A stretch of 64,000 bases of DNA from a virus: positions 1 through 64,000 of IMG/VR virus record IMGVR_UViG_3300044568_004391, one strand, 5' to 3'. Positions within the stretch are counted from its first letter, which is position 1. The number at the start of each line of letters is the position of its first letter. The translations under genes and the position numbers were made by a program. This document shows positions 52,341-53,803 of the stretch, one piece after another. Below the pieces are notes generated by a model. It searched no databases. It saw only the letters and a list, made by a program, of their open reading frames with translations, and was not told the origin of the DNA.

Positions 52341-52790
52341 ATGAAAATTTTAGATATCTTAAAAAGATTGATCAAGGAATATATTCATCCTGATGCTTCA
52401 GTTATATATGAAACAAAACTTAAAGGTAAGGATTTTATATTTTACGATAGTCCACACTTATATGAGATCAGAAAAGATTTTGGAACGGTTAGATTAAAAG
52501 ATATGTCATTGTTAATAGATATATGTAAGAGTACCGTGTTCAAGCTTTATACTCAGTACTATAGGATGAACAAACACTATAGAGAGATTGACGAGTACGA
52601 CCCCAAAAAAATCAGATTTGGAGTTGTAAAGAAGTTTGAAAATAAGGACGTGATGGTGATCATGCAGATTGAGAAGTTTGATAGAAAGGAGGGATTTATC
52701 ATCGTGGTGATAACAATCTTTGATGAGGAGGGTATAACACCAAGATCTTTGGAAAGAAATTATAATACAAGATTTTTCTTGGAAGTTTAA
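52341..52790 (+). CDS. hypothetical protein with ILKRLIKE leader
   Basis: Follows TATTTAT. Confidence 0.6.
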   Translation: MKILDILKRLIKEYIHPDASVIYETKLKGKDFIFYDSPHLYEIRKDFGTVRLKDMSLLIDICKSTVFKLYTQYYRMNKHYREIDEYDPKKIRFGVVKKFENKDVMVIMQIEKFDRKEGFIIVVITIFDEEGITPRSLERNYNTRFFLEV

Positions 52791-52809
52791 GAAAAACGCC
52801 TTATATTTG
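52778..52809 (+). promoter_or_regulatory. Bacteroidota-type promoter of ncRNA copy 1
   Basis: CTTG-N20-TATATTTG. Confidence 0.7.
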
Positions 52810-52814
52810 TACTG

Positions 52815-52949
52815 TTAACGATGGTTAACTGGTCGTCGGGAGTTTAAATCATTCGTACCGAGACGAGATTATAAAGGATGATTAAAGGTTGATGTACCTC
52901 GATCGGGATGATCAAAAACATTAAAGGACCTTCGGGTCCTTTTTTTTTT
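52815..52949 (+). ncRNA. novel structured pseudoknotted ncRNA, copy 1
   Basis: Own promoter and terminator, no long ORF, stems covary with copy 2. Confidence 0.75.
52923..52949 (+). terminator. intrinsic terminator with cUUCGg loop
   Basis: aaaggacc-ttcg-ggtccttt plus T run. Confidence 0.9.
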
Positions 52950-52957
52950 ATGTGTTT

Positions 52958-52989
52958 TTTGGAAGTTTAAGAAAAACGCCTTATATTTG
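52958..52989 (+). promoter_or_regulatory. Bacteroidota-type promoter of ncRNA copy 2
   Basis: TTTG-N20-TATATTTG. Confidence 0.75.
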
Positions 52990-52994
52990 TACTG

Positions 52995-53181
52995 TTAACG
53001 ATGGTTGACTGGTCGCCAGGAGTCTGATTGTCTGTACTGGGACGAGATTATAAAAGATGATCATCGGATATTGAGTTAATCCGTACAATCTCAACGTCAA
53101 GAACCTGGCGATTAGGTTCAGGGGTGATGTACCTCAATCCGATCGGATGGAACACATCGAAGGACCTTCGGGTCCTTTTTT
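52995..53181 (+). ncRNA. novel structured pseudoknotted ncRNA, copy 2 (with ~55-nt structured insert)
   Basis: Same core as copy 1 with compensatory changes; own promoter and terminator. Confidence 0.75.
53160..53181 (+). terminator. intrinsic terminator with cUUCGg loop
   Basis: aaggacc-ttcg-ggtcctt plus Ts. Confidence 0.9.
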
Positions 53182-53185
53182 CGTT

Positions 53186-53217
53186 TTTGGAAATTTAAAA
53201 ACTTCGCTTTATATTTG
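53186..53217 (+). promoter_or_regulatory. Bacteroidota-type promoter
   Basis: TTTG-N20-TATATTTG, related to the ncRNA promoters. Confidence 0.7.
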
Positions 53218-53238: not shown

Positions 53239-53358
53239 ATGACAAAAGCACAAGTTAAAATGATGATCGAAATGTCGGATCCTGATTTCGTTTACACGAT
53301 GTTGTTGGATCAGGAATTGGATGATCTTGCGGATTGGGTTGCGGACGAATATTTTTAA
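53239..53358 (+). CDS. 39-aa acidic protein (not in ORF track)
   Basis: MTKAQVKMMIEMSDPDFVYTMLLDQELDDLADWVADEYF, first ORF after the promoter. Confidence 0.6.
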   Translation: MTKAQVKMMIEMSDPDFVYTMLLDQELDDLADWVADEYF

Positions 53359-53359
53359 A

Positions 53360-53803
53360 ATGGAATGGACACACTATTTTCTCCAAATTGCGGAGACAGT
53401 TAAACTAAAATCAAAAGACCAACGCACACAGATAGGTGCGGTCATAGTTGGCGAGGATAATGAGATTGTATCCACGGGGTACAACTCATTTCCTCGTGGT
53501 ATTAATGATGATATTCAAGAACGACAAGAAAGACCCGAAAAATATTATTGGGTGGTTCATGCGGAAATGAATGCAATATTGAATGCTGCTCGTATTGGTA
53601 TGTCCACAAAAGATTGTACGATGTATCTTACTTGTGGTGTGCCGTGTTCAGATTGTTGCAGGGGAATAATTAACTCAGGAATCAAAAGAATATTTGTGAA
53701 GAGGGAAGACACCACCCGTAACCGTGAACATTGGGATGCTCACGCTGCTCGATCACGTGTGATGTTTGAAGAGAGTGGTGTCCAAGTTTGTTTTTACGAG
53801 TGA
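53360..53803 (+). CDS. dCMP deaminase (ComEB-like)
   Basis: GYN..PRG, HAEMNA, PCSDC; ATG at 53360. Confidence 0.9.
   Translation: MEWTHYFLQIAETVKLKSKDQRTQIGAVIVGEDNEIVSTGYNSFPRGINDDIQERQERPEKYYWVVHAEMNAILNAARIGMSTKDCTMYLTCGVPCSDCCRGIINSGIKRIFVKREDTTRNREHWDAHAARSRVMFEESGVQVCFYE

Follow-up and report, generated by a model that had tools for sequence, protein, structure and literature searches.

A very probably new family of modular, pseudoknotted RNAs encoded in tandem units by an uncultured aquatic phage

The stretch of DNA analysed here (the window) comprises the first 64 kb of a 151,984-bp IMG/VR record with a GC content of 34% and a CheckV completeness of 52%; its source is an uncultured aquatic phage with Bacteroidota-type promoters that also carries a GOLLD RNA. 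Two head-to-tail units, each extending from a promoter to a terminator, lie on the plus strand at 52779-52950 (copy 1) and 52959-53183 (copy 2). The order of the genes around them is conserved in related phages: an SbcC-like ATPase, a DNA methyltransferase, a protein of 149 or 172 aa, the RNA and a deaminase, with T5orf172 and LOG-like genes sometimes inserted. In the window, the gene directly upstream of the RNA encodes a 149-aa protein (52341-52790; homologues at L053:5883-6401 and others), and its final codons are overlapped by the -33 part of the copy 1 promoter. Downstream of the RNA genes come a strongly acidic ORF of 39 aa (53239-53358, plus strand; 77-98% conservation in relatives), served by a promoter of its own, and then a dCMP deaminase gene (53360-53803, plus strand; 147 aa). 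The phage deaminase shares less than 60% identity with its counterpart in any deposited phage (46% at best) and matches the deaminase (catalytic) domain of the PADLOC dCTPase model.

Both units begin with the same promoter sequence, of the Bacteroidota -33/-7 type, consisting of TTGGAA, a 17-nt spacer and TATATT extended to TATATTTG (52779-52809 in copy 1, 52959-52989 in copy 2), and a third promoter of this type (53187-53215, plus strand) serves the acidic ORF and the deaminase gene. The window contains exactly two copies of the 35-nt promoter core, against an expectation of 0, and the Bacteroidota promoter motif TTTG-N17-23-TAnnTTTG is found at 40 sites in the genome, against 8.8 +/- 2.8 in shuffled sequences. 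Each unit ends in an intrinsic terminator with an 8-bp GC-rich stem, a UUCG loop and a T run (52923-52950 in copy 1, with the hairpin at 52923-52942; 53159-53183 in copy 2, with the hairpin at 53159-53178); the region contains six terminator-like sites, against 0.6 in shuffles. The two copies are 81% identical over the aligned columns, and a 56-nt block is present in copy 2 only. The tandem units with a common promoter and UUCG terminator described in the initial annotation are, thus, confirmed. These signals fit a separate transcription of each unit from host-type promoters, with predicted RNA sizes of about 135 nt (copy 1) and 190 nt (copy 2).

The RNA is made up of two modules, M1 and M2. 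M1 (about 70 nt) comprises a 6-bp hairpin, P0, and an H-type pseudoknot, PK1. In copy 1, P0 (52814-52829) has two GUUAAC strands around a GAUG loop, and its stem covaries across relatives, which display stems such as GUCAAU/AUUGAC, GUUGAC/GUCGAC and GUCAG/CUGAC (with their loops, GUUAAC-GAUG-GUUGAC, GUCAAU-GAAG-AUUGAC, GUUGAC-GAUU-GUCGAC and GUCAG-UGUAGU-CUGAC). PK1 of this copy (52832-52883) is formed by stem S1 (52832-52839, with G52835 bulged, paired with 52858-52864) and stem S2 (52847-52854 with 52876-52883), and 52865-52875 constitutes the A-rich loop L3. In copy 2, M1 occupies 52994-53063, with P0 at 52994-99/53004-09, S1 at 53012-19 (G53015 bulged) with 53037-43, and S2 at 53025-33 with 53055-63, all of these elements, like those of copy 1, being on the plus strand. 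S1 follows the pattern GUC-N-NCRG with CYGN-GAC. S2 is formed between the S1 loop and the strand beyond the A-rich loop, the length of which is 11-19 nt, and its sequence is wholly different among types (AAUCAUUC/GGAUGAUU, UGAUUGUCU/AGAUGAUCA, CCACCGU/AUGGUGG, CAACCAUU/AAUGGUUG and AAUCGUUU/AGACGAUU). The invariant bases of the module are ACUGGU, GUAC and GACGAG, and the strictly conserved unpaired ones are GAGU, GUA and GACGAG.

In a MAFFT alignment of 11 M1 sequences, all cells were paired and five pairs were doubly changed; the covariance model built from these sequences recovered both of the divergent types that had been left out (E 1e-8 to 1e-11) and found nothing on chance loci. In an alignment of 21 distinct sequences, which was fitted to S2 and not to S1, 98.7% of cells were paired (S1, 100%; S2, 97.6%) and 7 of the 15 pairs had double changes, two in S1 and five in S2. 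The covariation score was 0.432, against 0.244 in shuffles, with none of 500 shuffles reaching it, and pairing dropped to 34-43% when the partner strands were slid. Cognate S2 strands had a mean pairing energy of -8.7 kcal/mol, against -4.5 for non-cognate combinations. The pairing of the loop with the downstream strand that the initial annotation had proposed at 52847-54/52876-83 and 53025-33/53055-63 is, thus, present and covarying. The stem closing this loop was correctly described in its upper 4 bp, which covary in both copies through two compensatory pairs; the lower part, drawn as UCG/CGA with a GA bulge, does not hold for two types from L009, which read UUC and UCA. All 21 distinct sequences are accommodated by the register GUC-N-NNNG/CNNN-GAC, in which the 5' strand carries a 1-nt bulge.

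M2 (about 96 nt) consists of a pseudoknot, PK2, a hairpin, HP3, and a further pseudoknot, PK3, enclosing hairpin HP5. It is complete in copy 2 (53065-53158, plus strand), in which the P2a stem lies at 53065-69/53079-83, PK2 at 53071-75/53090-94, HP3 at 53101-06/53114-19, HP4 at 53121-25/53131-35, PK3 at 53126-30/53154-58 and HP5 at 53137-40/53145-48. Copy 1 has a partial M2 with PK3 only (52886-52922, plus strand), in which HP4 (52886-89/52896-99) is followed by HP5 (52901-04/52910-13) and loop 52891-95 pairs with tail 52918-22. PK2 is formed by the P2a loop and a downstream strand (UUGAG/CUCAA, CUGAG/CUCAG or UGGAG/CUCCA), and the HP3 stem varies between GAACC/GGUUC and GAACU/AGUUC. The HP4 stem reads GGGU/ACCU, and its loop pairs with the 3' tail to give PK3, which is compensated stepwise across types, from GAUGU/ACAUC in the window to GAUGU/ACAUU in L013 and AAUGU/ACAUU in L044, with GUGAA/UUCAC in L020 and L053. 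HP5, between HP4 and the tail, is represented by AUCC/GGAU, UCCG/CGGA and AACC/GGUU. In the alignment of 14 M2 sequences, 93.9% of cells were paired, the unpaired cells being those of visibly misaligned rows, and 7 of the 27 pairs were doubly changed; the covariation score was reached by none of 500 shuffles, and the slid controls gave 27-54% pairing.

The hairpin with a GAUGU loop and the short hairpin following it that had been noticed in the initial annotation are real, and correspond to HP4 and HP5. The long-range pairing of the 5' GAUGGUU with the 3' end, by contrast, is mismatched in both copies: GAUG is the tetraloop of the covarying P0, and the partner of the 3' tail, ACAUY, is the GAUGU loop of HP4. 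The idea of a pseudoknotted architecture stands, but instead of a single pseudoknot closed by a helix between the 5' and 3' ends, the RNA has two autonomous modules with three pseudoknots. The supposed insertion in copy 2 is also to be read differently; the 56-nt block is ancestral module content (PK2 and HP3) that was lost from copy 1.

The helices of both window copies were all verified base by base. PK1 is an H-type pseudoknot, as are, on the evidence of covariation, PK2 and PK3. G-U pairs are frequent in the helices and would be A-C mismatches on the opposite strand, which identifies the plus-strand transcript as the folded molecule. Minimum free energy (MFE) folding of single sequences was uninformative for copy 1 (z -0.69) and gave a z of -2.61 for copy 2. 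The MFE fold of copy 2 includes a 12-bp helix between 53012-53023 and 53105-53116 (the 5' strand of S1 and the HP3 loop region), which was rejected because relatives do not have it and retain the local HP3 hairpin instead; it may be due to chance or be a lineage-specific alternative conformer. Covariance models and metagenomic relatives had been named beforehand as the check to be made, and the covariation score was above that of all 500 shuffles for both modules; the proposal of a structured, pseudoknotted non-coding RNA with genuine compensatory changes is, thus, supported across about 28 contigs and not merely by two copies. Folds so well supported by covariation are rare among small phage RNAs, and here three covarying pseudoknots lie within less than 170 nt; the M1/M2 family is a compact and tractable model for structure probing and pull-downs.

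The approximately 28 metagenomic and viral contigs with related units, found by DNA pattern scans and by look-up through the small downstream ORF, belong to one low-GC phage lineage. Near-identical phages carry both copies (the window, L014 and L015), copy 2 only (L001, L002, L013 and L044) or copy 1 only (L022), and strongly differing versions occur in more distant phages (L009, with versions a and b, L012, L017, L020, L028, L053, L061, L067 and L071). The modules are combined in various ways: M1 alone (L061, L067), M1-M2 (window copy 2, L001, L028, L071, L009a), M1-M2-M2 (L053), M2-M2-M1 (L020), M2-M1 (L024), M1 with the PK3 part (window copy 1) and M1 with PK2 and HP3 (L009b, L041). This variation in order and number indicates that each module is an autonomous unit, and the gain and loss of units among near-identical phages is explained by the identical promoters and terminators, which are substrates for unequal recombination. 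RNA domains are, thus, shuffled, duplicated and deleted here as protein domains are, pointing to independent binding or functional units.

Searches beyond these contigs were negative. No further M1 or M2 copy was found in the 152-kb record with nhmmer, blastn or both covariance models; the PK2 and HP3-PK3 patterns retrieved only the known contigs and chance matches from IMG/VR, and in 185,579 bacterial and archaeal genomes the M1 pattern matched nothing but GC-rich coding sequence, by chance. A blastn search of the RNA region against 50,697 phage records matched terminators alone, and these records contain no close genome and no cultured member of the lineage.

The RNA region has no plus-strand ORF of at least 25 aa between 52790 and 53147. 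An 8-codon ORF, MV(N/D)WS(S/P)GV, opens both copies (52821-52847 and 53001-53027), with its stop kept as TAA or TGA; a conserved peptide was rejected, given that the frame or length is altered in relatives, and the mini-ORF probably arises by coincidence from the P0/S1 sequence. None of the 4227 models of Rfam 15, which include tRNA, tmRNA, riboswitches, ribozymes, ToxI and phage motifs, matched the window at the gathering threshold; relaxing the cut-off to an E value of 10 brought up nothing but terminator look-alikes (9-21 bits), and riboswitch and ribozyme models remained unmatched. ARAGORN found no tRNA or tmRNA genes in the window. Both methods detect known RNAs elsewhere in this genome (GOLLD and a tRNA cluster), so the blank at the RNA locus is meaningful, and the initial view that the RNA lies outside known families is upheld. 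No description of the M1/M2 RNA was found in the literature; the motif could be among the 8,495 candidate structured RNAs, all unnamed, that have been catalogued from IMG/VR (PMC10690425). The M1/M2 RNAs are, thus, very probably a real and new structured RNA family, which closes a gap in Rfam.

As to function, the two units would, on the reading preferred here (with a probability of roughly 0.4), be two genes for stand-alone small RNAs of a previously undescribed family. An alternative is that the RNA is a cis-acting leader of the dCMP deaminase operon, in which the structured RNA and the terminator form an attenuator, with read-through controlled either through autoregulation by a bound protein or through an action of the RNA itself on the polymerase, as in put-like processive antitermination. 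The location between promoter and terminator is compatible with the latter, and the RNA is found upstream of the dCMP deaminase gene, in constant orientation, in all contigs but L041. Only 15-22 nt separate the terminator T run from the deaminase ATG in L017, L020, L024 and L067, which leaves no space for a promoter, and to judge from this spacing the RNA is there also a putative 5' leader with an attenuator. The position and orientation upstream of the deaminase may reflect a cis role or merely the gene order of the lineage; synteny kept within a single narrow lineage argues only weakly for a functional link. A leader role seems unlikely as a general explanation, however, given that the window, L009 and L061 carry a full promoter 3' of the terminator, that both window units are complete promoter-to-terminator cassettes, and that the module order relative to the terminator is variable, the neighbour of the terminator being M1, M2 or a truncated M2 depending on the contig. 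In addition, L041 (740-925) contains a unit of the L009b type (M1, PK2 and HP3) in a contig of 45% GC, with distinct flanks and a distinct terminator and with a compensated P0 (GUCAC/GUGAC), and no co-oriented gene of at least 50 aa is present in the remaining 1.4 kb of this contig, the genes downstream being convergent. Either horizontal transfer or a chimeric assembly could account for this unit; the downstream genes include a weak GNAT-type match, below the Pfam cut-off. The RNAs are, then, most likely stand-alone small RNAs that double as an attenuating leader in some phages.

Small aptamers such as SAM-II and preQ1-II typically contain pseudoknots in which the junction bases are invariant and one loop is A-rich, features also found in the M1 pseudoknot; a terminator follows the RNA, and the neighbouring gene is one of nucleotide metabolism. 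Tandem aptamers of a metabolite-sensing riboswitch, controlling termination via a nucleotide-related ligand, are nonetheless quite improbable, as no conserved pairing that competes with the terminator stem, or alternates between an aptamer strand and the terminator, was found across relatives, the terminator stems differ (GGACC, GAGACC, GAGACUC, GAGGCUC) while the modules stay constant, the module abutting the terminator varies among contigs, and Rfam riboswitch models were unmatched even at E values of up to 10. The lack of a conserved antiterminator, together with the copy in an unrelated genome facing convergent genes, makes an RNA acting in trans likelier than a riboswitch. The M1 topology, in which a hairpin loop pairs downstream, is also that of pistol ribozymes, and the strict conservation of the unpaired GAGU, GUA and GACGAG, together with the frequency of small ribozymes in phage DNA, in which they are common, could be taken to favour a self-cleaving or otherwise catalytic RNA. 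This possibility is very improbable: no Rfam ribozyme model was matched, no processing-related context was seen, and to our knowledge the conserved bases of M1 match no nameable ribozyme core. More improbable still is a DNA-level cassette driving recombination or gene shuffling, like the PeSL elements of T4-type phages, with the RNA as a by-product. The 48-bp identical promoters and near-identical terminators do flank units that are gained or lost among near-identical phages, and the locus is an insertion hot spot (the T5orf172 gene and other genes), but such a cassette accounts for copy-number variation and not for conservation, and the compensatory changes in eight helices, G-U intermediates included, imply that selection acts on the plus-strand RNA in its folded form. 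As the sole explanation, a DNA cassette is already disfavoured by the covariation statistics.

For stand-alone small RNAs, an action in trans on a protein may tentatively be proposed. The RNA would be made early, by the host RNA polymerase, each module would be a high-affinity protein-binding site, and the number of modules would set the dose of a decoy or inhibitor. Compact pseudoknots with invariant unpaired bases, strong early-type promoters and variable dosage place the RNA closer to protein-binding decoys or sponges and type III antitoxins than to base-pairing sRNAs and riboswitches, and an early protein-binding decoy or inhibitor is our best guess. The modular behaviour also points to a dosage-sensitive role early in infection, the profile expected of decoys against host factors or defences. 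The conserved junction nucleotides would serve just as well in a catalytic core or in a pocket for a ligand.

The type III antitoxins (ToxI, CptI, TenpI) and phage pseudo-ToxI decoys resemble the locus in having a promoter, repeated pseudoknot RNA units, a terminator and a protein gene, and in a number of RNA units that differs from phage to phage; a role as a decoy would be a further parallel. However, type III antitoxins consist of identical repeats of 34-45 nt, whereas the units described here are 70-100 nt long, of two unrelated kinds and present in one to three copies, and the gene downstream of type III antitoxins encodes an endoribonuclease (ToxN/AbiQ/CptN/TenpN), whereas here the RNA is followed by the 39-aa ORF, the dCMP deaminase or T5orf172. 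Neither tandem short identical repeats nor an adjacent downstream toxin gene is present at the locus, and no Rfam match was obtained. M1 shares its S1-L1-S2-L2-S1'-L3-S2' topology, a U-rich L1 and an A-rich L3 with the classical H-type pseudoknots of telomerase RNA, the SAM-II and preQ1-II riboswitches and luteovirus frameshift signals, but it shows no sequence or model similarity to these, lies outside coding regions and has no expression platform. GOLLD is likewise a structured orphan phage RNA known from environmental sequence data; the M1/M2 RNA is much smaller, modular and unrelated in sequence, and the GOLLD locus lies about 18 kb away in this genome.

The AvcID system provides an example of a deoxycytidylate deaminase inhibited by an RNA, the AvcI sRNA, and no terminator has been reported between avcI and avcD (PMC10511110). 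As in that system, a non-coding RNA gene lies directly 5' of a deaminase gene in the phages, and a dCMP/dCTP deaminase, the phage's own or a host enzyme of the AvcD type, is a candidate target suggested solely by this gene order; a deaminase as target is improbable. AvcI-like RNAs lie immediately 5' of a two-domain AvcD of about 500-600 aa, and the phage neighbour, a dCMP deaminase of 147 aa, has a single domain. Neither covariance model detected M1 or M2 beside the AvcD-like genes carried by 7 of 401 sampled Bacteroidota genomes; the idea survives this result, given the small sample and that AvcI sequences are not conserved. The more specific proposal, that the modules inhibit cytidine-nucleotide deaminases as RNAs functionally analogous to AvcI or, alternatively, that M1 is a new class of ribozyme or aptamer, appears distinctly unlikely. 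As inhibitors, early-made modules would keep a host dCTP/dCMP-deaminase defence silent after the shut-off of host transcription or, alternatively, would gate the phage's own deaminase; the former, if true, would be the first case of an RNA countering nucleotide-depletion immunity.

The upstream protein comes in a 149-aa or a 172-aa type with the same order of predicted secondary structures, and a tblastn search with the 149-aa protein against deposited phages found nothing. AF2 models of the two were modest (pLDDT 59 and 69). The top fold matches of the 172-aa type were RNase toxins of the RelE/ParE/BrnT/CdiA-CT/RegB-like kind, at Z scores of up to 5.6, below the noise bar, and those of the 149-aa type were nucleotidyltransferase-like, at Z scores of up to 4.5, too weak to use; Foldseek, a PDB profile search, PADLOC and the ESM Atlas yielded no usable match for either. 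The C-terminus common to both types, ...FLE(V/N)*, is due to the overlap with the -33 element of the RNA promoter. A gene with a T5orf172/MUG113 domain lies between the RNA and the deaminase in L053 (6749-8307), L028, L061 and L071, with a LOG-like (Lysine_decarbox) gene following it in L053; the T5orf172 gene starts within about 5 nt of a TATATTTG box, which would give it an almost leaderless mRNA. Elsewhere in the 151,984-bp record (G000), the GOLLD RNA (RF02032; 263.9 bits, full model length) is located at 71346-71746 (L093:7346-7746), about 7.3 kb past the end of the window, and a tRNA cluster, with 13 genes according to ARAGORN and 14 Rfam matches, extends over approximately 127-152 kb (L096, L097), all on the minus strand.
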